DNA from: Anaerolineales bacterium
GTDB lineage: Bacteria; Chloroflexota; Anaerolineae; Anaerolineales; RBG-16-64-43
Assembly: GCA_050010135.1 (NCBI GenBank)
Contig: JBEKLP010000001.1
Location: 15,289-79,288 of the forward strand
Direction: 5' to 3'
DNA: 64,000 bases
The position numbers were made by a program, and so were the translations under genes. Positions 10,696 to 60,294 of this stretch are shown in pieces; position 1 is the first letter of the stretch; every line of letters begins with the position of its first letter. Under the pieces are notes generated by a model. The model did no database searches. It was not told where the DNA came from and saw only the letters and a list, made by a program, of their open reading frames with translations.

Positions 10696-10697
10696 TC

Positions 10698-11486: not shown

Positions 11487-11490
11487 CCTT

Positions 11491-13942: not shown

Positions 13943-14593
13943 TCAGACATTTCCCCGGAATTCCGATTTTCTATTTATACGAAACCCGCATTTACATTGG
14001 ATAACGCCGTCCTTGTCGGCAAGGAGATTTCCCAAATCTCTTCCGCACCGGGGGCAGCGCGAGGAGAATAACATCTGCAGCCGCTGGGCGATGGAACGCC
14101 GGTACACCGCATACATGGCGTCCACCCTTTTCTTGTACCACTCCCAAAGTCCGCGCACGCCTTGCGGAACAAGCACAGCCGCGGCCAGAACCCCGATCAC
14201 AATCGACGCCGCCAGAGCGTTCCCCACCAGCAAGCTTAGGCCATAGTGGGCCGCCCCCACGAGCAAGAAGAGCATCGCCACCGTCAGGATTTTTCCGACT
14301 CCGGCCATGAAACGCGTGAGTACGGGAACAGGGCTCCAGTATTTGCTAAAAACCCCCTGAAGATCGTCCTGCATTTCCTCCAGGGAAATCTCCTGGTCGG
14401 CAACCCGCCTGGCTTGCGACGCGATGTGATAATACTTCCCGTATACCGGAAGAACACGCCCTTTATTTCGATCTTCCCAGCCGATTAGTTCAGTAAAAAC
14501 CCAGGATGAAGATTTTTTCTCCCTGCGTTGGGTTTCCAATAACGTTTCGGTTTCCTGCATTACATCTTCCGGCGTATAGGGAAGAAAAAACAT
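13943..14593 (-). CDS. Hypothetical membrane protein with C-terminal zinc-ribbon
   Basis: Two central hydrophobic helices and a C-terminal CPRCG...CKCG pair. No family recognised. Confidence 0.45.
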   Translation of the reverse strand: MFFLPYTPEDVMQETETLLETQRREKKSSSWVFTELIGWEDRNKGRVLPVYGKYYHIASQARRVADQEISLEEMQDDLQGVFSKYWSPVPVLTRFMAGVGKILTVAMLFLLVGAAHYGLSLLVGNALAASIVIGVLAAAVLVPQGVRGLWEWYKKRVDAMYAVYRRSIAQRLQMLFSSRCPRCGRDLGNLLADKDGVIQCKCGFRINRKSEFRGNV

Positions 14594-35596: not shown

Positions 35597-36619
35597 TCAC
35601 CCTTCCGGATCCTCGTCTTCCTCGTCGTCCTCGTCGCTCTCTGCGTCTTCCTCATCCTCATCGTCCAAAGTCAACAGGGGAAGATCGCCGATCGAATCCT
35701 GAAATTCCGCATTCTCCAGGGCTTCTTCGATCCGATCCCATTCGTCGCTTTCTGCTTCCCCCTGCAATTCCTCCAAGGCCTGGCGCGCCGATTCGCCCCC
35801 GATCTCGCCGAGGGAGTCGATCGTGTTCCAGCGGACGTTTCCATCCGGGTCTTCCAGCAGTTCGATGAGCAGCGGGACGGCGCTGCGCAAGCCGAGGGCG
35901 CCCGCGGCGCGCGCCGCCTCCGCCCGAAGCGCGGGCGAGCGGCTGCCCAGTTCCCTCAGGATAGTAGCGGACCAGCGGGAATCCGCCGACCGGCCCATGG
36001 CAAAGAGCGAGCTGGCCTTCATCGATTCTTCGTGTTGGCGATAGGCTTTTGCGAGGATCTCGTACACACCCGGTTCGGACGAAAAGCCGATCGATTCCAC
36101 CGCGCGCCGCCTTACTTCCAGATCGTCGGTCCCGCCGGCGACGACTTTCAACCGTTCCACGATCTTTCCGCCGATCGAAGCCGGAATTTTTTCCAGTTCC
36201 ATTCGTTCCACGAAGGCACCCAGCGCCGAAGCGGCGGCGGAACGCACCGCGGAATCCGAATCCTTTTCCATCAACTGCAGGAACCGGTCGATCAGTTTGG
36301 GATCCTCACATTCCCACAACGTCCGGATCGCGTGCACCCTCACCCCGCCGTCCGCATCGTCAAGGGTGACGTGCGCGATGCCGGTAAAGTCAAGCTCGAA
36401 GTTGGCCCGCGCCATTTCCTCCATCCGCGCGATGAGATCCCGACGGGTTGCCGCCGGAAGTTTGCGCCAGGTACCCAGAAATTCCCGGACCTGGAGCCTG
36501 CCCAGATCCGAAAGCCAATGCAGCGGGAACCGGACTCCGGAGCCCGACGTCGGAGCAACGTTTTCGGATTCCTTTTTCAGGAGAACCATCGCCGCATCGA
36601 ATAATTTCTGCTCAGACAT
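35597..36619 (-). CDS. HEAT-repeat protein with poly-acidic C-terminal tail
   Basis: Repeated D..VR..A..ALG-type HEAT units. C-terminus is DDEDEEDAESDEDDEEDEDPEG. Confidence 0.6.
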   Translation of the reverse strand: MSEQKLFDAAMVLLKKESENVAPTSGSGVRFPLHWLSDLGRLQVREFLGTWRKLPAATRRDLIARMEEMARANFELDFTGIAHVTLDDADGGVRVHAIRTLWECEDPKLIDRFLQLMEKDSDSAVRSAAASALGAFVERMELEKIPASIGGKIVERLKVVAGGTDDLEVRRRAVESIGFSSEPGVYEILAKAYRQHEESMKASSLFAMGRSADSRWSATILRELGSRSPALRAEAARAAGALGLRSAVPLLIELLEDPDGNVRWNTIDSLGEIGGESARQALEELQGEAESDEWDRIEEALENAEFQDSIGDLPLLTLDDEDEEDAESDEDDEEDEDPEG

Positions 36620-37940: not shown

Positions 37941-38933
37941 TCAATCGTTCGGTTTTAAAGGAATCGCCTTCGCTCCGAGTCCCGGCCGCGCCCGCAGGAT
38001 TTGGCGTACGGCGGGGAGTTCCCGCAAACGCCGTTCCACCTCTTCGGCGGATTCCGCCAAACACAGGCAGTGCACATTGGGTCCGGCGTCGACCGTGTAT
38101 GCCACGGGCAAACCGCCCACCCGCCATTCCGGAATGAGCCGCATCAATTCCAAAGACTCCGGTTCCCAATACGTCAGGGACGGCCGGGAGGTCATCATCA
38201 CTGCGTGCATCAGGCGGGTGTCTTCTTCGACGATCTCCGCAAGGGCGGTGAAATCTTTTTCCACAATTGCCCGGCGGCAAAGGTCCAGTCGCCGCGGGGC
38301 GTCGGCCACGCGCGCCGCCTGCAACGGGCTGGTCCTCGCCAGGACGTTCCCCTCCGCAGAACCGACTTTCTTGGGGCCGGCGTTTACGATCGCGATCAGA
38401 TCGATCAACGGCCAATGGGAGGGTGGAGCGATGGACACGGCGAACGAATCTTCGTCCCGGTTTGCCACAGACCATTCGACAAATCCCGCCGGCACCGAAC
38501 GGCCGGCGGATCCGGAACCGCGCCGGGCCAGGATCGAGAGCTCCCGCTCAGTAAGTTCCAACCCCAGCGCGGCGGCCGCGGCGACGGTCAGCGCCGCGAA
38601 GGCCGAGGCCGAGGAGGCGATTCCTGCACCGATGGGAAAATTATTTTCGCTGACGATTCGGGCTTTCCAAGCTACTCCGGCCATATTTCGAAGCAGATTA
38701 AGGTGGTCCGAGACACGCTCGGCGGTCGTTCCGGTTTGCACAACGCCCTGCAGCGTAAACTCATCCTTCCCTCGCTGCGGGTCGAACTCCGCCGAAGTGT
38801 GCGTTTCCAATCCGTCCAAATTCATCGAGATCGAACCATTGGCCGGAAGGCGCAATGCGTCGTCCCGGTTCCCCCAATATTTGATGAAGGCGATGTTAGC
38901 ACAAGCGACCGCCGTTGCGCACCGAGTTTGCAT
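37941..38933 (-). CDS. mvaD: Mevalonate (di)phosphate decarboxylase (GHMP kinase fold)
   Basis: NIAFIKYWGNRD, NNFPIGAGIASSASAFAAL (GHMP motif) and a TVDAGPNVH C-terminal motif. Confidence 0.85.
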   Translation of the reverse strand: MQTRCATAVACANIAFIKYWGNRDDALRLPANGSISMNLDGLETHTSAEFDPQRGKDEFTLQGVVQTGTTAERVSDHLNLLRNMAGVAWKARIVSENNFPIGAGIASSASAFAALTVAAAAALGLELTERELSILARRGSGSAGRSVPAGFVEWSVANRDEDSFAVSIAPPSHWPLIDLIAIVNAGPKKVGSAEGNVLARTSPLQAARVADAPRRLDLCRRAIVEKDFTALAEIVEEDTRLMHAVMMTSRPSLTYWEPESLELMRLIPEWRVGGLPVAYTVDAGPNVHCLCLAESAEEVERRLRELPAVRQILRARPGLGAKAIPLKPND

Positions 38934-40546
38934 TTTATATACGCTACCTTTTCCTGGTCTTCCAGCGCCAACTTGCAGCGCAGGTCCAATAGGTCCATGT
39001 ACCGCCGCTTATCTTCGAAGGTCGCGTTATCCAACCCGCTTCGGACTTCCGAACAAAACGATTCTATCACTTCAATATTCTCATCGGGAAGGCCTACAGG
39101 AATCAGATAAGAGGATAATTCCGTTTGCTCTCGGATCATTTCCGCAAGTTCCCTTTCCAGCTCGGCCTTTCGATCGTTTAGCACCTCTTTGGGAAAATTG
39201 TCTTCAAGGTACAGGTCTAATAATTTCTCAAGCTGGTTCCGGGTTTTGGATATACGGATCTCCAGCAATGATTCTCGTTCTCGGATTACATTGTTTGCGG
39301 CTTCCATTTCAGCCTGCTTTCCGCGTAATCCCTGAGCCAGCTGGTCGGGGTGCAGCAGCAGGCTTCTTAACCATTCCCAAACTGCAGTTTCCAGCCTCTT
39401 TGCCTGGAATAAGGGCATATCGCATAAAGACACCGGCCTTTGACTTCTGCCGTGACAAAAATAATATTGATTCTTACCACTCCGAGTTCGTCCCTGGTAT
39501 GTGTACCCGCATTTTGCGCATCGTAATCTTCGGCCTAATAGATATTCATTTTTAGAACTTCTCTTGCTTTGCTCGAAATTTATCAGACGCCGGTCTTTAG
39601 CCTTGTCAAAGATATCATTACCAATAATTGCGGGAACCTCAACCGGAACCCATTCGGCTCGTGGTCGTTGAACCTGCTTTCCAAGACCTCGCTTCATTCC
39701 GGTTAGCCGCTTCTTTTTGTTCCCATCCATAACCATAACTGTCTTTCCATAGTGCCAGACTCCGGTATAAGTTTCATTCATTAATATATGTCTCACCATA
39801 GCAGCAGTCCATATTCCAAAACCTCTTTTCTTGGCAACATGTTTGACCTTATCGCCGCGGGTTGGTATACGCATTTTCGTCAGCCAAAGTGCGATTTTTT
39901 GAATAGAAAAAGGAACGGTCCTTCCTTCACCGTTCACATACCAATGGAATACCATACGTACAATCTCAGCTTCTTTTTCATCGATTACGAGCCAGGATTT
40001 ATGCGGTTCACTTCGAACGATATAGCCATACGGAGGTCTGGAACCACATAAGACATGGCCCGATTGAGCTTTTCCCCGTTTTCCCCTCTTACTCCGTTCC
40101 ATAATTTTTGCTTTTTCGTATTCCGCCACGCTGGCCTGGATTTGTTTCTGCAACCGCCCCTCTTCCGTATCAGCGTACTGTCCCATCACATATTCCACGC
40201 GGATACCGGCTTTTTCGAACTCCTCGTCGATTAGTAGTTGATAAACGCATTTACGCGCTAAGCGATCCACGCAATATACAATCACTATAGCAACCGGATG
40301 AGAAGCTACAAATTCACGGAGAATATTTAGACCGGGCCGGTCGATGCTCTCACCGGTATAGTCATCTGTAAACTCCTTAAGAACGCAATATCCTCGATCC
40401 GCAGCATATTTTATACACGCCTCGATTTGAGTCGGAATACTGTAACCTCGGCTCTGTTCATCTGTGGAGACTCGTGCATAAATAACAGCCGATTTAATAC
40501 GGGTATCGGAAGTTTGCAGTACATCTTTCTGGGCATCATCTATCAT
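38822..40546 (-). CDS. Large serine recombinase (resolvase catalytic domain + recombinase domain + zinc ribbon + coiled coil)
   Basis: AVIYARVSTDEQSRGYSIPTQ catalytic Ser motif, a CAKCGYTY...YYFCHGR zinc ribbon and a coiled-coil C-terminus. The last ~37 codons lie in GC-rich host DNA overlapping mvaD in another frame. Confidence 0.9.
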   Translation of the reverse strand: MIDDAQKDVLQTSDTRIKSAVIYARVSTDEQSRGYSIPTQIEACIKYAADRGYCVLKEFTDDYTGESIDRPGLNILREFVASHPVAIVIVYCVDRLARKCVYQLLIDEEFEKAGIRVEYVMGQYADTEEGRLQKQIQASVAEYEKAKIMERSKRGKRGKAQSGHVLCGSRPPYGYIVRSEPHKSWLVIDEKEAEIVRMVFHWYVNGEGRTVPFSIQKIALWLTKMRIPTRGDKVKHVAKKRGFGIWTAAMVRHILMNETYTGVWHYGKTVMVMDGNKKKRLTGMKRGLGKQVQRPRAEWVPVEVPAIIGNDIFDKAKDRRLINFEQSKRSSKNEYLLGRRLRCAKCGYTYQGRTRSGKNQYYFCHGRSQRPVSLCDMPLFQAKRLETAVWEWLRSLLLHPDQLAQGLRGKQAEMEAANNVIRERESLLEIRISKTRNQLEKLLDLYLEDNFPKEVLNDRKAELERELAEMIREQTELSSYLIPVGLPDENIEVIESFCSEVRSGLDNATFEDKRRYMDLLDLRCKLALEDQEKVAYIKCKLGAQRRSLVLTSPSSNIGGTGTTHCAFRPMVRSR

Positions 40547-40562
40547 CTAGCAACCTACCTCC

Positions 40563-40702
40563 AAAACAAAGCGGATCGCTTGCCATAAGTGCGACCAAGC
40601 GACCCGCTCCCGCGATCGGGCCAGCTTGCCGCCTGTTCGGCCTGCTGGACCGTCCATTCGGGTGTTCGTAGCAACCGAAAGAACGGCGATTATTCAATTA
40701 CT
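40563..40702 (-). ncRNA. Candidate structured leader/sRNA, copy A, ending in an intrinsic terminator just before the recombinase RBS
   Basis: Starts downstream of a TTGACA-N17-CATAAT promoter. Has a hairpin with a CUACGAA loop and a second hairpin presenting GAACAGG. A 12-bp terminator stem (GCGGGUCGCUUG / CAAGCGAUCCGC) plus UUUGUUUU lies at 40563-40607. Homologous to 45728-45875. Confidence 0.5.
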
Positions 40703-40708
40703 GGTAAT

Positions 40709-40737
40709 ATTATGTTACCTATTATTCCTTTTGTCAA
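40709..40737 (-). promoter_or_regulatory. Sigma70-like promoter with an imperfect palindrome over the -10
   Basis: Minus strand reads TTGACA (overlapping the HTH gene's TGA stop) - 17 nt - CATAAT. GGTAACAT/ATATTACC is an imperfect inverted repeat across the -10. Confidence 0.55.
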
Positions 40738-40940
40738 GCGCGCGGACCCCTGCGTGTATCGTTTGATTTTTCAGCAGCCTGCAGGTAAGCCTTCAGGCTG
40801 GAAATGCTGATCATCCAGTCCCGGACCCACTTTTGGGACTTGATCTTCTTTTGCCGGACAAGGCGCCTGATATATTGGGCGCTATAACCAGTCAATTCGG
40901 ATGCCTCGTTTACGGTTATCCAGTCTTCGGCCATGGGCAA
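40734..40940 (-). CDS. HTH_17 (excisionase/MerR-like) DNA-binding protein
   Basis: 68 aa. WITVNEASELTGYSAQYIRRLVRQKKI...RDWMISISSLKAYL is the typical excisionase-family HTH. Paralog of 45469..45684. Confidence 0.75.
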   Translation of the reverse strand: MPMAEDWITVNEASELTGYSAQYIRRLVRQKKIKSQKWVRDWMISISSLKAYLQAAEKSNDTRRGPRA

Positions 40941-40970
40941 GCCCTCGAGGCCGATTCTAGACCAAAACTG

Positions 40971-41249
40971 TCAAGATGCAATCGGTTTTTTTCCCCCATT
41001 TTCGATCAGGTCGCTTTCTTGCCTCCTGTCGGCCGGCTGGCTCTGGTTTTCGTCGCATTTGACTGCCTGATTTCGTGCGATCGCTAGACGATAGCATTGA
41101 GCAAGAATCACTGCGATCTCCTGATTTTCCTCAGGTTGAAAAAGCTCTGTCTCTTTATTCATTTCGGCTGTTTCCGATGGATTCTCGGATATCCATTTCC
41201 CGTCCGGGCTCAACTGGCACGGGATTTGCATGCTTTCCCTTAGGGTCAA
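40971..41249 (-). CDS. Hypothetical protein (92 aa)
   Basis: ORF co-directional with, and 30 nt upstream of, the HTH gene. No recognisable motif. Confidence 0.35.
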   Translation of the reverse strand: MTLRESMQIPCQLSPDGKWISENPSETAEMNKETELFQPEENQEIAVILAQCYRLAIARNQAVKCDENQSQPADRRQESDLIENGGKKPIAS

Positions 41250-41472
41250 TTATCGATTCCTTCGCTTCATCTTGAAGGGCGTCCCTTCTCGATGGTAATA
41301 CCCAGATAAGGATGAACTTGATTTTTCTTTCCTTGTCGACGGACTGCTTCTTCAAATTTTGTTGCCTCTCTCGAAATAGGCTCCTTCGGGAATCTTATTG
41401 ACCTCCAAAATATCACCATCTCTCCACCTCGAACCATCGAATTTCCACGAATGGAGGGGAATAATTGTGAAA

Positions 41473-44400
41473 ATGGAATCCATCAATAAAAAAGCCGGAT
41501 TGTCACAATTGCGAAGAAAGGTAAAAGCAATCGCTTTACTCAGCGATTCCAGCTATCTGGAAATTTGCGATGAAATTGGTGAAATATTAGGAAAATCTGG
41601 CGATATTATTCAGGATTGGCTGCAAGACTCAAGCAGTCATAAATTTAGCGCTTCAGAAATAAATAAATTTGTTAATTATTCAATGTCTCATTTACTGGAT
41701 TTGGATCGTAAATGGGCTGAATACATTTTTTCCTGTTTTTGTTTTTCATTTTCTTTATTTTCTCGGGATGTCTTTGAATTATGCAATCAGCGAGACGCAA
41801 TAAAATCGTTTATCTCCGTCCCCCGACATGCCAAAACCAGAATCCCGTTTTTTATAGAGCAGTTCTTATCGGGAATTCGCAATAATGCCCAGCAGTATGC
41901 AAATAACCAATTCAATCATCACGGCAAATCCGGTTTCTTTATTCATCACCGGCTTGAGTTAAATGCTGTAAATCGGAACAATAACGAAAAGAAAAATGTT
42001 CCGACTAGCATCCGGGCTGATGACCTATTGTTTACGGAAGGGGTATTTGCTATCGTCGGATCGCCAGGGAGCGGGAAGACAACTCTTTTTTGGCATTTAT
42101 GCGCGATATTGGCCAATAAGGACAGGCATGGACTCATTCCAATACCTATTGACTTGGAGGGTATTCCCCCATCGGTTGATGAGGTGGAGTTTTTGACTTT
42201 GGCTATTCGCCAAAACGTCCGGGATGTTCTGGCCCACGAAATCCAAATTTTTGCCAGGTATCTCGATAAATGTCTACGTGAAGGCACGGCAGTTCTCCTT
42301 GCGGATAATTGGTCTTCTGAATTCAAGGGCTTGCCGAATACGTTCAAGGGCTGGAAACGAATCCTGTTTTTTAGCAAATATGTACCCTTTCATCCGGACA
42401 ATCGGATCGTTTTCTACAAGCTTCCGGAATTGTCCGATTCGGATATCCGCCTCTTTATAAAAAGCTGGCTATTTTCATCGCGTCAATATGCGGATTCGGA
42501 ACTGCTCTTTTCCAATATATCCTCATCCCGCGAAGTAAATTCCTTGGCCCGGATTCCATTGTTTCTCAATCTGATATGCGCTTCTTTTTACACCAATTCC
42601 CGGTTTCTGATCGGCCGTTGGCAGCTAATCGATGCTTCCCTGGAGATTTTTCTTGGTAAGCATGGCTTGTCTGATCAAGAGGTCTTCGCGTATAGAAGAT
42701 TTCTTTCACGTCTGGCTCTTTCCGGATATTCGAAAAGAGATCCCAATACAGGGATAAGGCGGCAATTTACATATGCGGATATTGAAATGTTTTTATGGCC
42801 GACTGACAGGCATCAAATTGACCTCACTCCGAAGAAAATCGTCGAGCACGGTTTTCTGCGTCCCATCCATGGCGGCGCACTTTTTTCATTTCCCCATTCG
42901 GAAATTCAAGCGGCATTGGCCGCCGAAGCCCTGCTAAATGATCCTTTCTGGGATGCATGGATACCTTTTTACAAGGATATCCCGGCTTGGGGCGATGTCA
43001 TCGTATACGCAGTTGCTCAACTCGGGGCTCTAGGCGATTTAGAGAGATTGGTAAAGTTATTGGGATTAATTGAAAATTTCCAGGATAAGATCATCCCTGA
43101 ATGCCACTTACTCCTATTGTGCCGGTGTTTTGCTGAATTGGAAGAGTCGATTCGAAACAAACTCGAACGACGAGATATTGGAAGGACTTTTATAACCAGG
43201 ATAATGTCTTTTTTACATTCCCGATCGTCCACGTTTTTTTATGAAATATTCGATTTACTACCCCGGCTCATGACAACTGATTTGGAAACCGAATTGATAC
43301 GATTTTTCTCTCATTGGAATTGTAACGACCTTTCCAGATGTATGATTGTGCGAATTTTAGGTTATTCAAAGAGCTCCTTGGCGGTAAAGAGTCTCGGCGA
43401 ATTCGCTTTATATGAAAAGGAAGATCACGGCTTGCGAGCAGAAGCAATTCTAGCATTGGGAAAAACCCGCCATGCAGAGGCGATCCCCATCCTTAATCTC
43501 CTACTCCAAGACCAAAGCGTTTTCTCTTATGTCGTCACCGCATTAGTCAACCATAACTCGGTTGAATCCATGAGGTCATTGCTCTCCACAGAAAAAACGC
43601 TTTATTGGGATCCTTCGGCAATGTCTCTTTTCAACCCCGAGATCTTGTCTGTTCTGGAAGGAGCATTATGCGCCGGGGAGCAGCATCTTCTTTTTATTTT
43701 ACAGGCAATATCTTCTATCGGCACGGATGATTCGGTCCTTCTTCTTGAACGATTCCTATACAAGAAAGATACTTTTTCGCTTGCGGCGCGTTTGCTAAGG
43801 AACATAACACTCCCCGAAGCTAATGAAGTATTATTACGTTTTGCGGAAGACTACCGAACCTCCCGATACGACCGATTCACTGCGTTGGAAAACATCCCCT
43901 GCGATATCATCCCAGCAGATTCCCGACGGCTCCTTAACCTTCTGTTTCCAACAGATACCCCTGCCTTTTCGTGCGGCGCAATTGAAGCATTACGCAAAAA
44001 CAGCGATATCAATCTGCCCGATCTATTAATCGCTGAAATTGTGGAATCCTCCGAGCAAAAGAGAAGCACCCTATTGTCAATCATGATTTCCCAGAATCGT
44101 CCGGAGTACATCCCGGTTTATCGGCGGCTTTTCCAGGATCCCGACCCGTTCATCCGTTCCAAGGCAATATACGGGCTGGCAAAGACGGATAAATCCCTGG
44201 ACCCGGCCGTCGTCACTGACGAACTTCGATTCGCCCTGGAGAATAACCTCATTCCCGATTACCTTTGTCAAGCCGCCGGCGAATTACGAATAAAGGAATC
44301 CGTCCCCTTGTTGGCGAAATTATTCTTGCGTCGTTCCTGGGATGGGAATTGTTGCGAATTATCTGCGTTGCAGGACATCGGAGGGCCCGAATCGGCGAAG

Positions 44401-45285
44401 GTTTTACTCTCTGCAAAACACCTTTGGTGGAGCGGCGAGGATAGCATCTTCTATAATTCTGATTTAATTTTTCAAACCCTTGGTGAATTAGGTGAGCCGA
44501 TAGGCCTGCAAACGATTCTGGATTGCGGGAATAGTCAGTGCGCAATTAATAAAGAATTTTCCACCGGGATAATAAATACTTTAATGAGGGTCCATAATCC
44601 ATTCGCTGCTCCATTTCTGCTTGAGGCATTGGGCCATCCCAACCCCGAAGTCAGGCATAATTCCATCATTTCGCTTGCCCAAATGGGATATGAAAAAGCG
44701 ATCCCCAAAATCATCGCGCTCTTATCCGACGAGGTCGATTACGTGCGGGATATGGCCTACACCGCCATAACCCGCACGTATAAATCCTTTGAGAATCCGG
44801 ACGCTGTCGCCGCGCTGGAGGAATTGTTTCAATCCGCCGATGACCGGCTTTGGTACGCGGCCCTTATTGGATTAGGAAATGCTCGGCGCGACTTGATTCA
44901 CTTTTACACATTAGAGAGGATGCGTCAAATCATCAAGACCGAACCGCAAGATTTTCTGTTCCGGGAAACATTAGGCACATACGCAGAAAGCGGGGACAAT
45001 CATACTTTCCAATACATATGGGACATGCGAAGCAATGTTGGAAAATGTGTTGGTCTATCGATGGATTTTCAGAGAAGAGAAAGAGATCTATTCATGAGTC
45101 TGGGCCGGATCAGATTCCTACCCTTCCTTATTAACAAACTCCCAGAAACCCGTCCTTTATTGAAGAAAATATGCGAAGAATGTAACATCCGGGTGCTGGA
45201 GAACGGAACCGTCGTATTGCCGGAAGGCCAGGAGCTTTCCGCGGACAATGCCGTAAAATTCCTGTGGCATTATTCAAAGCAGTAG
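41473..45285 (+). CDS. STAND NTPase: HTH-like N-terminus + NACHT-type P-loop + long HEAT/PBS-lyase-type repeat array
   Basis: Walker A FAIVGSPGSGKTTLF and Walker B AVLLADNW. C-terminal HEAT units: DPFIRSKAIYGLAK, NPEVRHNSIISLAQMG, DYVRDMAYTAI. A GTG at 41467 (after GGAGGGG) is an alternative start. Confidence 0.8.
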   Translation: MESINKKAGLSQLRRKVKAIALLSDSSYLEICDEIGEILGKSGDIIQDWLQDSSSHKFSASEINKFVNYSMSHLLDLDRKWAEYIFSCFCFSFSLFSRDVFELCNQRDAIKSFISVPRHAKTRIPFFIEQFLSGIRNNAQQYANNQFNHHGKSGFFIHHRLELNAVNRNNNEKKNVPTSIRADDLLFTEGVFAIVGSPGSGKTTLFWHLCAILANKDRHGLIPIPIDLEGIPPSVDEVEFLTLAIRQNVRDVLAHEIQIFARYLDKCLREGTAVLLADNWSSEFKGLPNTFKGWKRILFFSKYVPFHPDNRIVFYKLPELSDSDIRLFIKSWLFSSRQYADSELLFSNISSSREVNSLARIPLFLNLICASFYTNSRFLIGRWQLIDASLEIFLGKHGLSDQEVFAYRRFLSRLALSGYSKRDPNTGIRRQFTYADIEMFLWPTDRHQIDLTPKKIVEHGFLRPIHGGALFSFPHSEIQAALAAEALLNDPFWDAWIPFYKDIPAWGDVIVYAVAQLGALGDLERLVKLLGLIENFQDKIIPECHLLLLCRCFAELEESIRNKLERRDIGRTFITRIMSFLHSRSSTFFYEIFDLLPRLMTTDLETELIRFFSHWNCNDLSRCMIVRILGYSKSSLAVKSLGEFALYEKEDHGLRAEAILALGKTRHAEAIPILNLLLQDQSVFSYVVTALVNHNSVESMRSLLSTEKTLYWDPSAMSLFNPEILSVLEGALCAGEQHLLFILQAISSIGTDDSVLLLERFLYKKDTFSLAARLLRNITLPEANEVLLRFAEDYRTSRYDRFTALENIPCDIIPADSRRLLNLLFPTDTPAFSCGAIEALRKNSDINLPDLLIAEIVESSEQKRSTLLSIMISQNRPEYIPVYRRLFQDPDPFIRSKAIYGLAKTDKSLDPAVVTDELRFALENNLIPDYLCQAAGELRIKESVPLLAKLFLRRSWDGNCCELSALQDIGGPESAKVLLSAKHLWWSGEDSIFYNSDLIFQTLGELGEPIGLQTILDCGNSQCAINKEFSTGIINTLMRVHNPFAAPFLLEALGHPNPEVRHNSIISLAQMGYEKAIPKIIALLSDEVDYVRDMAYTAITRTYKSFENPDAVAALEELFQSADDRLWYAALIGLGNARRDLIHFYTLERMRQIIKTEPQDFLFRETLGTYAESGDNHTFQYIWDMRSNVGKCVGLSMDFQRRERDLFMSLGRIRFLPFLINKLPETRPLLKKICEECNIRVLENGTVVLPEGQELSADNAVKFLWHYSKQ

Positions 45286-45395: not shown

Positions 45396-45468
45396 CTTAT
45401 ATTTGACAAAATTTCCATAAGCCCACCCGTTTGGCTAGTTCGGACCCTTAAGTTATAGTATTGCCAAG

Positions 45469-45684
45469 ATGGCTAAAAGGGTCGATCCTCAGGAATTGAT
45501 TACCATAACCGAAGCTGCTCGTCGCTTTGGATTAAGCCCTCAATATCTTCGTGATATTGCCCGGTCCGGCCGGCTAAGGGCCCGAAAAATGGGCCGCGAT
45601 TGGCTTACTACCCCCGCCGATGTGGAAATATATATTCAAAGCCGGCGGAAGAAAGGTGCTTTTCGCGAGGATCTGAAAAGATAA
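45469..45684 (+). CDS. HTH_17 (excisionase/MerR-like) DNA-binding protein
   Basis: 71 aa. LITITEAARRFGLSPQYLRDIARSGRLRARKMGRDWLTTPADVEIYI is collinear with the 40734..40940 product. Confidence 0.75.
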   Translation: MAKRVDPQELITITEAARRFGLSPQYLRDIARSGRLRARKMGRDWLTTPADVEIYIQSRRKKGAFREDLKR

Positions 45685-45692
45685 TCTCCCCC

Positions 45693-45721
45693 TTGACTAT
45701 ACAGCGTATACGCTGTATATT
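45693..45721 (+). promoter_or_regulatory. Sigma70-like promoter whose spacer is a perfect 22-bp palindrome (operator)
   Basis: TTGACT - 17 nt - TATATT. TATACAGCGTATACGCTGTATA (45698-45719) is its own reverse complement. Confidence 0.6.
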
Positions 45722-45727
45722 ATTTTA

Positions 45728-45875
45728 ATAATGGAATAGGCAAAGTAACGCCGTCCGCGGGTGCTACGAACACCAACGGACGGCTAACCCACAGAACTGA
45801 ACAGGCAGTCGTGCGGGCTGGTGTTTATTATAACGGCCGCTTCTGCCTTACGGTGGAAATGGCCGTTTTTCTTTG
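45728..45875 (+). ncRNA. Candidate structured leader/sRNA, copy B, ending in a terminator-like hairpin plus T-tract
   Basis: CGCCGTCCG...GGTG-CTACGAA-CACC...CGGACGGC nested hairpin, a GAACAGG-presenting second hairpin, then AACGGCC...GGCCGTTTTTCTTT. The core is homologous to copy A on the opposite strand. Confidence 0.5.
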
Positions 45876-45914
45876 CCTTTCTAGCGATACAGATAAATCG
45901 CAAGGGAGACGCGA

Positions 45915-46106
45915 ATGACTCGAGGTAAAAACTTGGTTTGTCCAAGAATCACAGTAACTCACTCATCAAAACCGAAATTTTCTTCGCAGGATGAATTATG
46001 GTCTGTCGCCGGGCCAATTTTGGCCAGAATTATGACCCAGGTGCTTGTTCGGGAAATACCCATCCGAAACAATCATATAAAGAACGATTCATCTAACAAT
46101 TCCTAA
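45915..46106 (+). CDS. Small hypothetical ORF (63 aa)
   Basis: ATG preceded by AAGGGAG. First ORF after leader B. No motif; weak support. Confidence 0.3.
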   Translation: MTRGKNLVCPRITVTHSSKPKFSSQDELWSVAGPILARIMTQVLVREIPIRNNHIKNDSSNNS

Positions 46107-46121
46107 TTTCCGGGAGGAGCA

Positions 46122-46613
46122 ATGACAAGTACTTCAAAGAACGATCCCAATGAATTTGATTATCTCAGATTGTTTGGTTTGAAAGGCATAACCTCGATCA
46201 ACGAATTACTACTCGCCGATTCAAAAGGGCTAAAGTCATCTCATGTTTCAACTTTCTGCAGAATAACAGGTCTTTCAATGGATGATATTGCCACAATAAT
46301 GGGGATTTCTCGTAAACAAGCGGATAACAAAATGCGAACAGGTGTATTTTCAGCCAAGGAGGCGGATATTTTGCTTAGTGTTGCACGTATTATCTGCGAA
46401 TTTTTCCGTGTTTATCCTGATAACCAAGATTTTTGGATGCTTTTCCTTCCAGACTCTGAAGAAACCAATGATATGCAATCTCTATATCTCTCCAAGACCG
46501 AGAACGGAAAAGGAAAAGCCCTTCTTCAAATACATATTGAGCGCGAAGATTATCTTAGAGTATTTTCTACTGATATTTCAACTCATAAGAAGGTCAATTC
46601 TAGTAAAGGTTGA
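46122..46613 (+). CDS. Xre-like HTH + DUF2384 (MbcA/ParS-type antitoxin-like) protein, copy 1
   Basis: 163 aa. ITGLSMDDIATIMGISRKQ (HTH) then SAKEADILLSVARIICEFFRVY...FWMLF...LYLSKTENGKGKALLQI, the pattern of the toxin-binding DUF2384 domain. Confidence 0.7.
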   Translation: MTSTSKNDPNEFDYLRLFGLKGITSINELLLADSKGLKSSHVSTFCRITGLSMDDIATIMGISRKQADNKMRTGVFSAKEADILLSVARIICEFFRVYPDNQDFWMLFLPDSEETNDMQSLYLSKTENGKGKALLQIHIEREDYLRVFSTDISTHKKVNSSKG

Positions 46614-46650
46614 TCTTTTTTCCGACAATTCTTAATTTCCAGGAGGAGCA

Positions 46651-47142
46651 ATGACAAGCGCTTCAAAGGCCGTTACTCATGAATTCGAATATCTCAAATT
46701 ATTTGGCGTGAAAGCCAGGAACTCCAAAAATGAATTACTAATCGCCGAAGTAAAAGGATTAAAGTCTACTCACATCTCGACCTTTCGCCGAATAACCGGT
46801 TTAACAGTAGATCATATTGCCATCCTATTGGATATTTCTCGAAGACAAATTAATTACAAGATGCGAAAGGGGATTTTTTCAGCCAAGGATGCGGATATTT
46901 TGCTCAATGTTGCCAAGATAATTTACGAATTCTTCTGCTTATATCCTGATATCCAAGATTTTTGGCTTCTCTTCCTTGCCGGCCGAGACGAATTTAGCGG
47001 AAAGTCAGCCTTGTATCTCTCAAAAACCGAGATTGGAAGGGGACGCGTTCTTGCACAAATTATTAAGGAACGTGATGATTATTTACAGGATATTTCAAAG
47101 GATAGTAAAACTCCTAAGAACGTCAAAGTTAAAAAGGAGTGA
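46651..47142 (+). CDS. Xre-like HTH + DUF2384 (MbcA/ParS-type antitoxin-like) protein, copy 2
   Basis: Also 163 aa and collinear with copy 1. The RBS region is duplicated too (aatttccRggaggagcaATGacaag); the repeat period is 529 bp. Confidence 0.7.
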   Translation: MTSASKAVTHEFEYLKLFGVKARNSKNELLIAEVKGLKSTHISTFRRITGLTVDHIAILLDISRRQINYKMRKGIFSAKDADILLNVAKIIYEFFCLYPDIQDFWLLFLAGRDEFSGKSALYLSKTEIGRGRVLAQIIKERDDYLQDISKDSKTPKNVKVKKE

Positions 47143-47276: not shown

Positions 47277-48497
47277 ATGGATACCATTTCTTTTATCGTC
47301 ACATTGCTTATTGCGATTGTTGTATTTCTTATTGTGGGATTTATATTAGGGTATCTGATTGCGCGTCTCCGGGAAAGATCCTCCGGCGAGCAATCGCGCA
47401 TTCAGGTGGCGCAATTGGAGGCCGAAGCGCGTGCCGCTAATGAGAAAGTAGCATATCTTCAGAATAGTAAACAGGAAATGGAGAATTCCTTTACCGCCCT
47501 AGCGAATGGTGTTTTGTCAAAAGCAACCGACGATTTGTTGAAGAATAATTCGACACAGTTGGAACTTGGCAAGAACGCCATCACCGCAATTGTCGATCCA
47601 TTAAAGGCTAATTTAACTGATCTCGACAAAAATATTCGTGATTTGGAAGGGAAGCGTGAAAGCGCCTATGGTTCGCTTACTACTCAAGTAACGGCATTAA
47701 CCAAAACGAACGATTCCCTCCAATTATCAACGCAAGCGCTCGCCAATGCCATGCGGTCCCCCACCATACGCGGCCGTTGGGGTGAGATTCAGTTGCGCCG
47801 GATCGTGGAGCTCGCCTCGATGAACCGAAACGTGGACTTCGAGGAACAAGTTACCGGGGATGAAGGGCGAGCGGATATGATCATTCATTTACCAAACGAA
47901 GGCATTCTTCCACTCGATTCGAAGGCCCCGCTGAATGCCTATCTGGAAGCTATGGAATGCCAGAGCCAGGATGATAGGGATGCGAAAATGGATTTGCATG
48001 CAAAGGCAATGAAGGCGCGCATCTCCGAACTTGGGCAAAAGAAATATTGGGAACAATTCAAGGAATCAAAAGCTCCTGATTTTGTTATTATGTTCGTGCC
48101 GAATGAAAGCTGTCTAGGAGAGGCGCTGGAAGCGGATGCCGGCTTGATGGAATACGCCATTTCCCAAAAAGTTATCATCGCGTCGCCTTTTACGCTTTTA
48201 GCCCTCTTGCGCACCGTTGCTTATGGATGGTCACAGACCCAAGTTGCGGAAAACGCACAAGAAATCGCAGAGCTTGGAAAAGAGCTGTACAAGCGTCTCG
48301 ATAAATTTGTGTCCCTTCTGGATGGGGTCGGTACCGGCCTTAATAGCGTAGTCAAACAATATAACGAGGTTATCGGATCCCTTGACCATCGTTCGATGCC
48401 TGCGTCGAGGAAAATGGAACAAGCGGGGCTATCGGAAAGTGAATTGGCGCTGCCCGAAGCCATTGACTTGAAGGCGAAAAGCGGACACGATTCATAA
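47277..48497 (+). CDS. rmuC: DNA recombination protein RmuC (N-terminal TM + coiled coil + RmuC nuclease-like domain)
   Basis: N-terminal hydrophobic helix and a long coiled coil. RGRWGEIQLRRIVE, DMIIHLPNEGILPLDSKAP and DFVIMFVPNES are collinear with the RmuC family. Confidence 0.85.
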   Translation: MDTISFIVTLLIAIVVFLIVGFILGYLIARLRERSSGEQSRIQVAQLEAEARAANEKVAYLQNSKQEMENSFTALANGVLSKATDDLLKNNSTQLELGKNAITAIVDPLKANLTDLDKNIRDLEGKRESAYGSLTTQVTALTKTNDSLQLSTQALANAMRSPTIRGRWGEIQLRRIVELASMNRNVDFEEQVTGDEGRADMIIHLPNEGILPLDSKAPLNAYLEAMECQSQDDRDAKMDLHAKAMKARISELGQKKYWEQFKESKAPDFVIMFVPNESCLGEALEADAGLMEYAISQKVIIASPFTLLALLRTVAYGWSQTQVAENAQEIAELGKELYKRLDKFVSLLDGVGTGLNSVVKQYNEVIGSLDHRSMPASRKMEQAGLSESELALPEAIDLKAKSGHDS

Positions 48498-57194: not shown

Positions 57195-58571
57195 TTAATC
57201 TGAAGTTTCCTTTTTGATGATTATATGCAATTCTCCATTTGATCTTCTTGGCAAATTGGCTGCAAGAAGTTCATATGTAATATTAAATGACTTTGCAGTT
57301 TCATAGGATTCAAAAATAACATATAACGGATCAAAAGGTTCAATTAATTGATGCTTAATACGGTTTACATGAATATTTACATCATAGCTTCCAGTACGCT
57401 TTATTTTAGGAAATGAAATATTTGGCGGAGAAGATATTGGTCCCATTACGGGATTTATATTGGATGGTAAATAAGGAACATTTCCAAGAACACTTAATCC
57501 ACCCATTAGATGTTCCATTTGTGATTTAGGTTTTTCTGGCGGCTGAGGTGGTTTAGGTGCCTTCGGAAGATCTTCTTTGTGGAATAATTGAAAACCATCA
57601 GGAAAATGAATAAAGACATCTATATCTTCTGCGGGTGCTGTTCCATCATTTGAAAGCAATATTGATAATTTAATTGCTCTTCGTTTAATATTCTCAAAAT
57701 TTGTTTCAAGAGTTAAATATTGAGGATAATTAGTATAATACTCGTCAAGATCATTATTGTACTTTTCGTAATCTTCGGGAGAAAGTCCAATAAGCATTGA
57801 ATCGCGTAATTTGGTGGCCAAATTAACCAATTCTTGACTTTTTTTGTCAGACATTTCTGGTATTTCTAATTTATATGGCTTTATTTCCATATGAGGATAT
57901 TTCTCTTTTACTTTAGCAATTCGATTTTCAATATTTTCTTCCGTTAAAACAACTGGAGAAGGAAGAGTAAATGTTGCATATTGGTTTTCATCTTCAAATA
58001 CTAATGATAATTGCGGGTTTTTTAGTTTTAATTGCCTAAGCTCCTCTTCTAGATCCCTCATTTTTGCGACTTCGGGATCAGGTTCTTCTGGGAGACGTAA
58101 GTTTTCATCAATATTAATAGTTGAAATATTATGAGAATTAGCTTTTGCCCATAGAGAAAGCCCAGAATCAGAAGTAAATAAAACAATATCCGCCTCTGGA
58201 TTCTCATTGTGATAGGTAAGTATACTTGCAATTAGGTGATCATCTTGAATATCACGGCTTAGTTGAAAAGAACCAAAATCTATAAGGGGATCGCGTGGTT
58301 CTAAGACTAATTCGATTAATGGATTTATTTGCGCATGAAGGTTTTGATCAATTATTCCCGAGATCTTTCGGAGTATCAAACCCGCACGTTTTCGAATCCT
58401 TTGTCTTTGATTACCATCTTTATGTTTATTAAGTTCGCGAATTGTTATTGGCGGGATTAATATAATTACCGAATCGGCATGTGAAATAGCAGGCCAATCA
58501 ATTTGGTCAAAATCATAGTAGTGAATAAATATATTTGTGTCAACGAATAATATCTTTTTCATATTCATCAT
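57195..58571 (-). CDS. PIN-domain protein with a large uncharacterised C-terminal region
   Basis: KILFVDTNIFIHYY (first acidic residue), ITIRELNKH, DDHLIASIL and VLFTSDSGL give the PIN acidic-residue spacing. The remaining ~300 aa are not recognised. Confidence 0.65.
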   Translation of the reverse strand: MMNMKKILFVDTNIFIHYYDFDQIDWPAISHADSVIILIPPITIRELNKHKDGNQRQRIRKRAGLILRKISGIIDQNLHAQINPLIELVLEPRDPLIDFGSFQLSRDIQDDHLIASILTYHNENPEADIVLFTSDSGLSLWAKANSHNISTINIDENLRLPEEPDPEVAKMRDLEEELRQLKLKNPQLSLVFEDENQYATFTLPSPVVLTEENIENRIAKVKEKYPHMEIKPYKLEIPEMSDKKSQELVNLATKLRDSMLIGLSPEDYEKYNNDLDEYYTNYPQYLTLETNFENIKRRAIKLSILLSNDGTAPAEDIDVFIHFPDGFQLFHKEDLPKAPKPPQPPEKPKSQMEHLMGGLSVLGNVPYLPSNINPVMGPISSPPNISFPKIKRTGSYDVNIHVNRIKHQLIEPFDPLYVIFESYETAKSFNITYELLAANLPRRSNGELHIIIKKETSD

Positions 58572-58618
58572 ATTATAAATTAATTACATGTTTTGACAAG
58601 TAAGCATAAATTATTAAG

Positions 58619-58742
58619 CCGCCCAACGGCTGTTGGCTCAGGCGCTTGGTCGGCTATGCAACATATGGTTCATTTTATCCGAAACTTCATCGAAGCAATA
58701 TTTGACATTTCTCACATTCAAAAGCTAAACCGCATGGAGCTG
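58619..58742 (-). repeat. attC-like recombination site (one end degenerate)
   Basis: GCCCAACGGCTGTTGGCTCAGGCGCTTGGTCGGCTATGCAAC is near-identical to the 57047 copy over its first ~80 nt. The other end reads GATCGGGC instead of GTTGGGC. Confidence 0.6.
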
Positions 58743-58767
58743 TGGATCGGGCGCGGATAATTCTGAT

Positions 58768-60294
58768 TCATATGGCCTCCATCATCTCGTTCAAACTTCG
58801 GAGTGCATCAAAGAATTCAATGGTTAGCATAACCAAGCGACATTTTAACTTATGTAATGTAATCTTCTTATTATAGAGCGATGACACTTCTTGCGAAGTA
58901 TATTGAACAGGTAGGTTTTTGAGATTATTTATTCGTCGCCTGATTTCTCGTGAATGGCCAATTAGGGAAAATATATCAGCACTCGATCCAGTACCTGTGT
59001 ATGTAGATGAAAGCTTATTAAGGAACTCTTTTTCCGAAGGCAGGGCCGAAGGTGATAACTCGGCTGGAGGCAGTGCTCTTAAGAGGTCGCGTAGCGATAT
59101 CTTGTTGCGTTCCAACAATGCCATTATTTGATCATATGTCAGATCCGACATAAAGGAAGTATTTATTGATGTGTTTTCGAAGAATCCTATCGTTTGTGAG
59201 AAATCCGACCGGCTATCAATTAGGGTGGCTAACGCTTCTGTTGGATCAATCTCATAGATTTTTAACGGATGCTCTTCAATTAACGGGTCTATTGACCGAA
59301 ACTCATCGAGAAGTGCGGATGGGGATGAAATAAGCGAGAGTGGCGAGAAGAAGAATACATCGTATCTACTTGAGAGACCAAGAACTGGCAAATTTGCAAT
59401 CGAAGAATAGTTAAGAATGAAGTGAGGACATTGTGTTATATAGGATTGTATCGCCTTAGGAAGATTTTTATCACTTACAACCACGAAGAGTTTTCGATAC
59501 AATTTACGATCACTGATGAACCGCTTAAGGTAGCCTAAGTTAAACCTACCTGAGTTGGCGATTGAAGAAAGTGAGGCTTTAAAAGTTCTTATCTGGCCTT
59601 CTTTGTAATTGAGCTTCTTTGCAACCTCTTCCACGTAATCATCTTTGAGGAAACGATCATAGAAGTGGAAGCGCGCGTGCTCAAATAAAGTATCATCAAG
59701 CGGTGAGAAGTAAGTCTCGACAACTGAGTATTTCCGATCCAAGATTGCTATCTGATTATATGCGAGAACAAACTCGGTCTTACCCTTGTCAGTAAGTCCC
59801 CGGTAAATGGATTTGATGTATAAGAAAGAAGCATCTTGATCTTGTGGATGGAGATGTTCGCGATACCAAATAAGGAATAAAGCTATAACCATGGGACGAC
59901 GGCGTTTATCATCAATATCTGATGCACCCAATGACCGGGCAGGTATCTGTGCGCAGACAAGTTCCAGTTGAGAAAAGAGTGGAAGTGATTGTCGTGCTTG
60001 TGATTCAGGAAGTGATAAAAGAAAATAATCGAGTAGGAAAGTGCGAAATTTGATTACAGAGGATTTTACGGATCGCTGGTAATCCGAGGGGCCAACGTAT
60101 TTTTGAAGGCGCGAAAGGATTTCTGGAGCAAAATCGTTTATAAGTCCCACGAATGGGATGAGTAGTGAAAAGTAGGCTAGAGGTGTAACATTCTGTTTTG
60201 AGGTGATAAACAGATTGAGGAAAAACAAGCCAATTAGAAAAAACAATGAAATACTTAATCGTATTATTGGGCGTAAACGGAAAAATGTTGTCAT
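58768..60294 (-). CDS. Hypothetical protein with two N-terminal TM helices
   Basis: 508 aa. N-terminus LSISLFFLIGLFFLNLFI / YFSLLIPFVGLI. The rest is soluble with no recognised motif. Confidence 0.5.
   Translation of the reverse strand: MTTFFRLRPIIRLSISLFFLIGLFFLNLFITSKQNVTPLAYFSLLIPFVGLINDFAPEILSRLQKYVGPSDYQRSVKSSVIKFRTFLLDYFLLSLPESQARQSLPLFSQLELVCAQIPARSLGASDIDDKRRRPMVIALFLIWYREHLHPQDQDASFLYIKSIYRGLTDKGKTEFVLAYNQIAILDRKYSVVETYFSPLDDTLFEHARFHFYDRFLKDDYVEEVAKKLNYKEGQIRTFKASLSSIANSGRFNLGYLKRFISDRKLYRKLFVVVSDKNLPKAIQSYITQCPHFILNYSSIANLPVLGLSSRYDVFFFSPLSLISSPSALLDEFRSIDPLIEEHPLKIYEIDPTEALATLIDSRSDFSQTIGFFENTSINTSFMSDLTYDQIMALLERNKISLRDLLRALPPAELSPSALPSEKEFLNKLSSTYTGTGSSADIFSLIGHSREIRRRINNLKNLPVQYTSQEVSSLYNKKITLHKLKCRLVMLTIEFFDALRSLNEMMEAI

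Follow-up and report, generated by a model that had tools for sequence, protein, structure and literature searches.

A derived NACHT-fold STAND protein in the integrase/excisionase module of Anaerolineae islands and its possible role as a regulator of the element

Here we describe a gene for a large STAND NTPase in a 64,000-nucleotide stretch of DNA from an Anaerolineales bacterium (contig JBEKLP010000001.1, positions 15,289 to 79,288; referred to as the window), where it resides in the integrase/excisionase module of a low-GC genomic island. The protein, which consists of a family-specific helical N-terminal domain (N-domain), a NACHT-fold NTPase and a HEAT-type solenoid, is quite possibly a ligand-sensing STAND regulator of the island that signals rather than kills. 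Pointing in this direction are the lack of an effector domain, the Xre-type structural neighbors of the N-domain, a genuine helix-turn-helix (HTH) domain in the same position of the sister lineage P0121, the fixed synteny of the gene, the divergence of the gene and its small neighbor LAxCY as a cassette, and the LexA-type repressors that mark a regulatory slot in related elements.

HTH/adaptor-NACHT-HEAT architectures have already been catalogued and STAND transcription factors are known; what distinguishes this family is a conserved D-N-W Walker B motif, its own N-domain and a fixed, hypervariable position in the backbone of serine-integrase islands. Bacterial NLR-like proteins are currently seen as immune proteins that combine a sensor with an effector. 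The present lineage, rare and deeply diverged, unites an unusual trio of traits: no effector, loss of the catalytic Walker B residues with retention of the nucleotide-binding ones, and a place in an integrase/excisionase module. That module is compact: besides an integrase and two excisionase-like genes (HTH17a and HTH17b), it contains LAxCY, the STAND gene and a candidate small RNA of very high conservation. If the protein is indeed a regulator, sensing of the innate-immune type would be tied to the mobility or expression of a defense island, and STAND transcription factors would extend into the NACHT clade.

Architecture of the STAND protein

The reading frame of the STAND gene runs uninterrupted on the forward strand from an ATG at 41473 to a stop codon at 45285, and an NCBI record (MGD0172859.1, 'HEAT repeat domain-containing protein [Anaerolineales bacterium]') holds the same 1,270-residue version, so that the open reading frame (ORF) proposed in an initial annotation of the window is real. 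An alternative start, used by a metagenome gene caller (1,272 residues, P0001), is the GTG two codons upstream at 41467, at a spacing of 7 nt from a GGAGGGG Shine-Dalgarno sequence (41453-41459). The family is very rare, since a HMMER search with residues 1-600 against 1.84 billion cluster representatives returned only 18 proteins at E<1e-10. Only this exhaustive search found the family; a word-indexed search with the full-length protein was insufficient, retrieving the protein itself, one HEAT-only match and two weak 870-residue NACHT plus HEAT proteins, both of which carry a true Pfam NACHT domain and whose alignment with the query is co-linear, starting at the P-loop and extending into the HEAT array. 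At least six lineages, 22-39% identical, retain intact full-length ORFs of 1,250-1,320 residues. Searches of viral and metagenome contigs with the single protein as query yielded no close relative, phage records contained no relatives and plasmids only one distant NACHT protein; the searchable literature held no earlier description of the family or of its gene arrangement. One family copy, at locus L107 (2374-6288), is split by frameshifts into four overlapping ORFs and is either a pseudogene or a long-read assembly error.

The predicted fold of the NTPase is that of NACHT proteins. When an AlphaFold model of residues 1-620 (52 sequences in the alignment; mean pLDDT 88, pTM 0.77) was compared with the PDB by Foldseek, the top 38 neighbors were all NACHT-type NLRs (NLRC4, NOD2, NLRP3, NAIP and other NLRPs; E 1e-10 to 1e-7), with Apaf-1, Dark and ORC/Cdc6 ranked below them, and we assign the fold on this ground. 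NACHT status is thus based on fold and transitive homology and not on the protein's own Pfam score: its match to NACHT (PF05729) reaches 19.6 bits, below the gathering threshold of 26.7, and nSTAND3 is likewise sub-threshold, both matches covering the P-loop only. PF05729 is passed by 4 of the 14 aligned relatives (best 1.3e-14), and also by P0003 and P0004. Residues 115-185, with a helix at 118-147 and strands at 160-163 and 179-181 in the model, belong to the NTPase module as well, which reduces the N-terminal region, at first thought to span some 200 residues, to a family-specific domain of ~114.

The nucleotide-binding residues are retained. Walker A (GSPGSGKTT, residues 196-204, 42058-42084) conforms to GxxGxGK[ST], and its K202 is shared by all 50 aligned relatives; P362 of the (N)PL(F/L)L motif (PLFL, 42553-42570) is invariant (52/52), and H475 of the winged-helix domain (WHD) is His in 42 of 52. 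Sensor 1 is Lys302, where 49 of 52 relatives have Arg. The NACHT clade is defined by the Walker B signature D[GAS]hDE, in which a small residue and then two acidic residues follow the Mg-binding Asp (Kibby et al., 10.1101/2022.07.19.500537), and the corresponding motif here (LLADNW, residues 275-280, 42295-42312) departs from it, reading D278-N-W-S-S. Asparagine stands at +1 after the Asp in 12 of the 14 core members, and most core members lack the acidic pair, so that the core family is marked by (L/I)-D-N-W followed by non-acidic residues, plus FGRYxP; among the wider relatives the canonical DG(L/F)DE is found in 34-38 of 52, with textbook LLLDG(L/F)DE and TCR motifs. Because the defining signature is missing, we class the protein as a derived NACHT-fold lineage, not as a canonical member. 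The NACHT-type STAND identity first read from its motifs and layout is thus borne out by the fold, with its top NLR matches, and not by the Walker B signature or the Pfam threshold. Judged by what is established for ASCE P-loop NTPases, with K202, D278 and His475 present and the acidic pair gone, proteins of the core family would still bind nucleotide and would hydrolyze it slowly or not at all.

The C-terminal HEAT/PBS-lyase-type repeats noted in the initial annotation are significant in Pfam: HEAT_2 matches at 2.7e-32 (111.3 bits, cut-off 27.7; best stretch 1047-1134), HEAT at 1.8e-11 (43.6 bits, cut-off 23.5) and HEAT_PBS at 2e-7 (31.3 bits, cut-off 20.9), with HEAT_2 matched by 11 of 14 family members. 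By Pfam the repeats are canonical only at ~1000-1140; residues ~620-1000 form degenerate HEAT-like units of ~30 residues each, as judged from co-linear alignment with the HEAT array of P0004 and from reading of the sequence. The tail that follows is 44% identical to that of P0005, has no invariant polar residues and matched no family in Pfam, PADLOC or NCBIfam. That the protein has no recognizable effector, as had been proposed, holds at both ends: Pfam, PADLOC, NCBIfam and PHROGs revealed no enzymatic effector in residues 1-185 or 1141-1270, and Foldseek against the PDB and BFVD (viral predicted structures) no enzyme fold for the N-domain. Conserved residues are confined to positions 194-517, and there are no conserved polar residues outside the NTPase core. 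No antiphage model of PADLOC or NCBIfam matched the protein, the best PADLOC scores being HEAT-only (4e-6) or P-loop-only and those of NCBIfam HyoA (0.0019) and EruA (0.052) falling far below the cut-offs.

The N-domain is modeled with pLDDT values of 93-98 as a bundle of six helices (6-23, 28-39, 43-49, 60-73, 79-88 and 98-114). Its compact, well-superposed Foldseek matches are dominated by Xre/Cro/CI-type HTHs in the PDB and BFVD alike, among them the HppE N-domain, lambda cI, a phage 186 regulator, Aca1 and entries named 'HTH_XRE', 'Repressor' or 'Cro/C1', with Xre-type superpositions over 58-81 columns at a root-mean-square deviation of 2.7-4 Å and a probability of up to 0.84. The sister lineage P0121 (locus L054; 1,308 residues, a longer gene model of P0013) shares a homologous NTPase and HEAT array (~27% identity) and the synteny with the recombinase, HTH17a and HTH17b. 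In the position equivalent to the N-domain, N-terminal to the homologous NTPase, it carries a canonical HTH (Pfam HTH_31 8.4e-11, HTH_3 1.5e-6, residues 9-71; annotated by JGI as XRE-family HTH), and acidic residues still follow its Walker B Asp (ALIDEFES); the window protein differs in both respects, with DNW and a six-helix domain that is longer and unrelated in sequence. An Xre-like N-terminus is found in the more distant relative P0114, too. A hidden Markov model (HMM) of the N-domain, run against all ORFs of the window and 56 loci, recognized STAND proteins only, and Foldseek gave no death-fold matches. EAD / Death-like adaptor systems (those of Kaur et al.) reportedly share their N-terminal domain with a neighboring effector; an EAD-style homotypic adaptor is ruled out here because no neighboring ORF contains a second copy of the N-domain.

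Position of the gene in the island backbone

Upstream sequence is available for 8 independent loci, and in 7 of them the STAND gene is divergent to a LAxCY-type ORF, HTH17a and a large serine integrase. A recombinase, HTH17a and/or a LAxCY-type ORF and the divergent STAND gene are present in the window, L002 (P0005), L003 (P0012), L005 (P0015), L054 (P0013) and L107 (P0006), and in L008 (P0008) HTH17a and LAxCY are followed by the contig end; the sole exception, L106 (P0016), has a LAxCY-like ORF and an FtsK/SpoIIIE translocase with no recombinase within 4 kb. HTH17a occurs in L002, L008, L054 and L107, and HTH17b follows the STAND gene in seven loci (the window, L002, L003, L054, L056, L060 and L107). 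The motif LA(Q/A)CY(R/A)(L/V)A..R is common to the LAxCY proteins of the window, L002, L003, L008 and L107, with a similar motif in L106. Both HTH_17 proteins fall into PHROG families of excisionases or recombination directionality factors (RDFs) and the recombinase into phage-type integrases. This synteny spans STAND identities of 22-39% and recombinases that are mutually 20-28% identical (that of the window is 71% identical to the P0005 neighbor and 51% to the P0012 neighbor), in islands of Anaerolineae (Chloroflexota).

Because the cargo beyond the backbone differs in every locus, the STAND gene belongs to the backbone and not to the cargo slot. L002 carries OLD, SbcCD-like and Schlafen genes, L005 a SIR2-STAND gene, a CHAT gene and a type I restriction-modification (R-M) system, and L107 another type I R-M system; in L003 the cargo (7055-13741) is a DnaE2-ImuB-ImuA-like (RecA_N) mutasome cassette and not a set of defense genes, which implies that the backbone mobilizes more than immunity genes. 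The survey of homolog neighborhoods called for in the initial annotation thus revealed a strong association with mobile and defense contexts, through the integrase synteny (7 of 8 loci) and the defense genes of the window, L002 and L005.

For a wider view of these elements, we collected 45 loci from GTDB genomes, nearly all of them Anaerolineae/Chloroflexota, whose recombinases are 36-61% identical. In 4 of these STAND-less loci (L024, L032, L040 and L047), a LexA-type repressor of 247 residues (PDB LexA, E ~6e-6; ~8210-8980) lies directly upstream of the excisionase-integrase genes, which points to this neighborhood as the regulatory slot of the element and suggests that excision is SOS-controlled in the LexA-carrying relatives. 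A home-made HMM of low sensitivity found no small Xre repressor in the equivalent slot of 34 STAND-less elements. In L016-L018, L027, L029, L037 and L041, the recombinase ends a different co-oriented gene set (ORFs of ~369, ~880 and ~261 residues), which represents a distinct element type with the same integrase clade.

The STAND gene and LAxCY are far more divergent than the backbone in which they lie. Between the window and L002, the recombinase is 71% identical, HTH17a 79%, HTH17b 86%, a 63-residue ORF 90% and an Xre-like protein 61%, whereas the STAND and LAxCY proteins are 39% and 32% identical. Nucleotide homology covers 38877-40986 and 45451-47135, with none in between, and the arms around the STAND plus LAxCY cassette are 73-86% identical. 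Since LAxCY is only 32% identical to its L002 copy, it diverges together with the STAND gene, whose product varies most in the N-domain (29%) and in the linker before the P-loop (20%). A comparison of STAND and recombinase co-divergence (Spearman 0.39, p 0.26) is uninformative because STAND identities saturate at about 25%.

Regulator, immune receptor or conflict cassette

If the STAND protein regulates the island, it could do so as follows. The ligand of the HEAT solenoid would be a macromolecule, with a protein from an incoming phage or a rival element as the most plausible candidate, and its binding would release the closed, ADP-type state; slow or absent hydrolysis would hold the protein as an NTP-bound oligomer, in which clustered N-domains, derived from or replacing an Xre-type HTH, would alter transcription of the adjacent divergent operons, that is, LAxCY-excisionase-integrase on one side and the STAND operon itself with HTH17b on the other. 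Detection of the signal would in this way be linked to whether the island is excised or retained, or else to how its cargo genes are expressed, with LAxCY as a putative co-evolving partner or antagonist.

MalT (PMC4381067) and AfsR (10.64898/2026.09.02.748808) are STAND proteins that act as transcription factors, and bacterial NACHT N-termini include non-enzymatic 'adaptor' domains, DNA-binding ones among them (Kibby et al., 10.1101/2022.07.19.500537). Ligand binding, oligomerization and DNA binding are proposed for the window protein by analogy with these two groups. In MalT, AfsR and GutR, a nucleotide-switch NOD is joined to a repeat sensor and a DNA-binding output, and ligand-driven oligomerization controls transcription (PMC4381067; 10.64898/2026.09.02.748808), a scheme that the window protein may share, including the N-terminal placement of the DNA-binding domain in AfsR. 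These regulators differ from it in belonging to other STAND clades with significant LuxR- or SARP-type HTHs, and none is a backbone gene of a mobile element; the window protein has a NACHT-like fold, not that of the SWACOS / AP-ATPase-like clade, and its N-domain is not demonstrably an HTH. Because its fold is closest to NACHT NLRs, the resemblance is one of functional analogy only. The immunity regions of lambda (cI/cro), SaPI (Stl) and ICEBs1 (ImmR) are hypervariable and hold a divergent pair beside int/xis, and Stl-type repressors sense phage proteins directly; the known immunity repressors are small HTH proteins lacking a STAND NTPase. The STAND/LAxCY region resembles such regions in its divergent, hypervariable pair next to int/xis and in the LexA-type repressor encoded in the same neighborhood of sister elements, and differs from them in its STAND NTPase and in that no operators were detected.

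In a bolder and rather doubtful version, the mobile element has co-opted an NLR-like receptor as its master switch. An Xre-derived N-domain would hold the divergent excisionase-integrase promoter region until an invader protein on the HEAT array locks the hydrolysis-deficient NTPase as an oligomer, whereupon the island would excise and escape or induce its cargo, STAND and LAxCY being the determinant of hetero-immunity. If true, this would be the first NLR-type sensor whose output is control over the life cycle of a mobile element and not cell death.

Several results weigh against a regulatory role. No Foldseek match of the N-domain was significant (best E 0.9 in the PDB and 0.2 in BFVD), hhalign gave a probability of 0.26% against a hand-entered set of classical Xre HTHs and an E-value of 0.21 against the P0121 HTH, with which the domain could not be aligned, and the putative HTH segment of the window protein is acidic (net -6). 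Operator repeats above chance were lacking in the divergent intergenic regions of six loci, where ACCATCGA has 5 occurrences against 2.8 expected. None of the 45 related-recombinase loci contains a member of the STAND family, so such elements can complete their basic life cycle without the gene; this also rules out the STAND protein as an obligatory partner of the recombinase clade. The hypervariable pattern suits a phage-style immunity region and an arms-race receptor equally well, and the NACHT plus HEAT architecture, fast divergence, patchy distribution and defense-rich surroundings fit an immune receptor just as well.

The HTH-like N-terminus of the initial annotation is therefore upheld in part: a confident helical bundle, superpositions that are best with Xre-type domains and the true HTH of P0121 speak for it, and the lack of a significant fold, Pfam or hhalign match and the acidic segment against it. 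Pfam gave no match at E<=10 to ten N-termini of the family, and in the relatives the putative HTH segment is neutral to slightly acidic. A profile search with the N-domain alignment came back empty, missing even family members, and is therefore uninformative. Because the P0121 HTH cannot be aligned and no intermediate sequences were found between it and the window-type N-domain, the latter may be an Xre HTH that has diverged to an extreme degree, or else a domain of similar topology that has replaced one. The earlier suggestion that the protein regulates rather than kills is likewise favored on one count, its conserved place inside the integrase/excisionase module, and disfavored on another, the absence of operator repeats above chance. 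We conclude that the STAND gene is an accessory but long-standing resident of the regulatory/integration module of serine-integrase islands.

A serious though somewhat unlikely alternative is a self-contained antiphage NLR of the bNACHT or Avs type, in which HEAT senses a phage protein, NACHT oligomerizes and the clustered N-domains act as a non-enzymatic effector that, for example, sequesters or disrupts a host or phage component or recruits a host factor, leading to growth arrest or abortive infection; adjacency to the integrase would then reflect a favored first cargo position. A NACHT fold with a repeat sensor is the standard layout of bacterial NLR-related defense proteins, and the window protein shares with bNACHT proteins (10.1101/2022.07.19.500537) an NBD-HD-WHD fold nearest to NLRC4, NOD2 and NLRP3, a tripartite layout with a C-terminal HEAT-type sensor and, as its nearest sequence relatives, canonical NACHT proteins. 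With Avs proteins it has in common its size, its repeat sensor and a defense-rich mobile island. Such neighborhoods (TrlF/Ppl-like, PIN_4 and type IIG R-M genes in the window; L002; L005), the status of the STAND gene as the fastest-evolving one of the backbone, its absence from most related elements, as is usual for accessory defense genes, and the existence of non-enzymatic adaptor N-termini on bacterial NACHT proteins (Kibby et al., 10.1101/2022.07.19.500537) all favor this alternative, under which the 114-residue helical N-domain would be a new non-enzymatic effector. Unlike bNACHT proteins, however, the core family has D-N-W-x-x in 12 of 14 members instead of D[GAS]hDE, does not reach the Pfam NACHT threshold in the case of the window protein, and matches no HyoA, EruA or PADLOC model; unlike Avs, the protein has no nuclease, protease, TIR or SIR2 effector, its NACHT fold lies outside the Avs NTPase clades, and no PADLOC or NCBIfam Avs model matched. 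No known effector type is present, the catalytic Walker B residues are gone, and the N-domain has no paralogue on a neighboring effector. Moreover, the gene keeps its position in the integrase/excisionase backbone across deep divergence, whereas true cargo varies, and P0121, the sister lineage, carries a genuine Xre DNA-binding domain where an effector would be expected.

We consider it improbable that STAND and LAxCY form a two-gene conflict cassette in which the effective product is LAxCY, acting as a toxin, anti-repressor or antagonist kept in check or set free by the STAND protein, and in which the pair serves hetero-immunity or exclusion against related elements. LAxCY is almost exclusive to STAND loci (weak matches in 2 of 45 STAND-less loci) and divergently transcribed from the STAND gene, both diverge far beyond the 61-90% identity of the remaining backbone, and the nucleotide homology of two related elements breaks exactly at this pair. 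LAxCY has no recognizable family or fold, however, its HMM gave no match in L054, and by gene order it may simply belong to the excisionase-integrase operon.

Signaling to a separate nearby effector such as RmuC, whose gene lies 2 kb downstream and partially matches the PADLOC 'RTasRmuC' model, was put forward in the initial annotation and is very unlikely: RmuC is absent from every other family locus, the downstream genes being entirely different each time, backbone homology with L002 stops before it, and the STAND N-terminus shares no domain with any neighbor, so that this comparative context largely rules out RmuC as a dedicated trans effector. We give as little credence to a decaying, functionless NACHT remnant carried passively, as might be read from the lost acidic pair, the Lys in place of the sensor-1 Arg and the broken L107 copy, given the intact ORFs in at least six lineages, the confident structure predictions, the conserved P-loop, Walker B Asp, PLFL motif and WHD His, and the conservation of the DNW motif itself, which argues for a selected state rather than drift.

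Other features of the island

The features of the island are listed in Table 1. The GC content falls from 0.61 to 0.45 at ~38-40 kb, where the low-GC island starts. At this shift the 3' end of the recombinase gene overlaps the 5' end of a diphosphomevalonate decarboxylase ORF on the same strand (37941-38933) by ~110 nt (38822-38933), an overlap that may be the attachment junction and reflect integration at the start of a host gene. LAxCY matched neither Pfam nor PHROG families, and no sigma-70-like promoter was called in the region between it and the STAND gene (41232-41466). The promoter-like element downstream of HTH17b contains a perfect 22-bp palindrome, TATACAGCGTATACGCTGTATA, at 45698-45719.

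Table 1. Coordinates of protein segments, genes and other features in the window
Feature	Coordinates	Strand	Basis or remarks
Large serine recombinase (integrase), left end of island	38822..40546	-	Pfam Resolvase, Recombinase, Zn_ribbon_recom; PHROG integrase phrog_95, 6.5e-94
HTH17a, excisionase/RDF-like HTH_17, 66 aa	40734..40934	-	Pfam HTH_17 1.3e-10; PHROG excisionase families
LAxCY small protein, 86 aa, divergent to STAND gene	40971..41231	-	Shared motif
Divergent intergenic region LAxCY/STAND	41232..41466	.	Ribosome-binding site at 41453-41459
STAND residues 1-114, family-specific six-helix N-terminal domain, Xre-like topology	41473..41814	+	AlphaFold, Foldseek
STAND residues 115-185, pre-P-loop long helix and strand of NTPase module	41815..42027	+	Conserved Y..A...GF(I/V)HSRL; model of residues 1-620
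STAND residues 186-540, NACHT-fold module of nucleotide-binding, helical and winged-helix domains (NBD-HD-WHD)	42028..43092	+	AlphaFold model and Foldseek
STAND residues ~541-1140, helical HEAT / PBS-lyase-type solenoid, putative ligand sensor	43093..44892	+	Pfam; AlphaRep matches in PDB
STAND residues 1141-1270, conserved C-terminal tail (…LP.TR…N.R……G…)	44893..45285	+	Family consensus
HTH17b, second excisionase-like HTH_17, 71 aa, directly 3' of STAND gene	45469..45684	+	HMM 3.5e-31; PHROG excisionase/RDF families
Promoter-like TTGACT-17-TATATT, near-consensus	45693..45721	+	Conserved in L002
Candidate small RNA of island backbone, ~135 nt	45745..45880	+	Conservation, folding, terminator-like end
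63-aa backbone ORF	45915..46106	+	90% identical to L002; homologs in L003, L056
Two tandem paralogous 163-aa Xre-like-HTH proteins	46122-46613, 46651-47142	+	Pfam Xre-like-HTH 1.2e-5, first copy only
RmuC	47277-48497		2 kb downstream of STAND gene; partial match to PADLOC 'RTasRmuC' model
TrlF-family PHP-domain and SMC-like ATPase, 896 aa	49362-52052	-	NCBIfam TrlF cut-off passed, 1.1e-115; partial Ppl match, PADLOC 3.9e-48
458-aa PIN_4 protein, then 508-aa protein without family match	57195-60294	-	Adjoin type IIG R-M
Type IIG Eco57I/MmeI-like R-M enzyme	60505-63474		Beside PIN_4 pair

The candidate small RNA is ~98% identical to the corresponding segment of L002 (~14185-14375 region), with flanking coding sequences at ~80%, and folds with a minimum free energy of -67.6 kcal/mol (z = -5.9), terminating in a hairpin and U-run. 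It matched no Rfam family, and its exact 35-nt core is found in the window (L001) and L002 only, with no occurrence in viral contigs. The two 163-residue proteins, with which the conserved backbone ends on the right (blastn homology to L002 extends as far as 47135, and variable cargo lies beyond), are 58% identical to each other and homologous to a single 194-residue L002 gene (first copy 61%); as tandem paralogues of one gene, they are ruled out as a toxin-antitoxin pair.

In the window, the backbone is followed by RmuC, the TrlF/Ppl-like PHP-ATPase, several family-less genes, the PIN protein and the type IIG R-M enzyme. ORFs of 197, 442, 233 and 242 residues, all unannotated, flank the TrlF-family ATPase and may be partners of it, and the PIN_4 protein and its 508-residue neighbor may constitute another uncharacterized defense system. 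Outside the island, the high-GC core genome encodes a 340-residue HEAT-repeat protein (35597-36619, reverse strand; HEAT_2 1.9e-32) between genes for Peptidase_MA_2 and M50 (RseP-like) proteases; it is unrelated to the island, indicating that HEAT/PBS repeats also serve in housekeeping contexts of the host.

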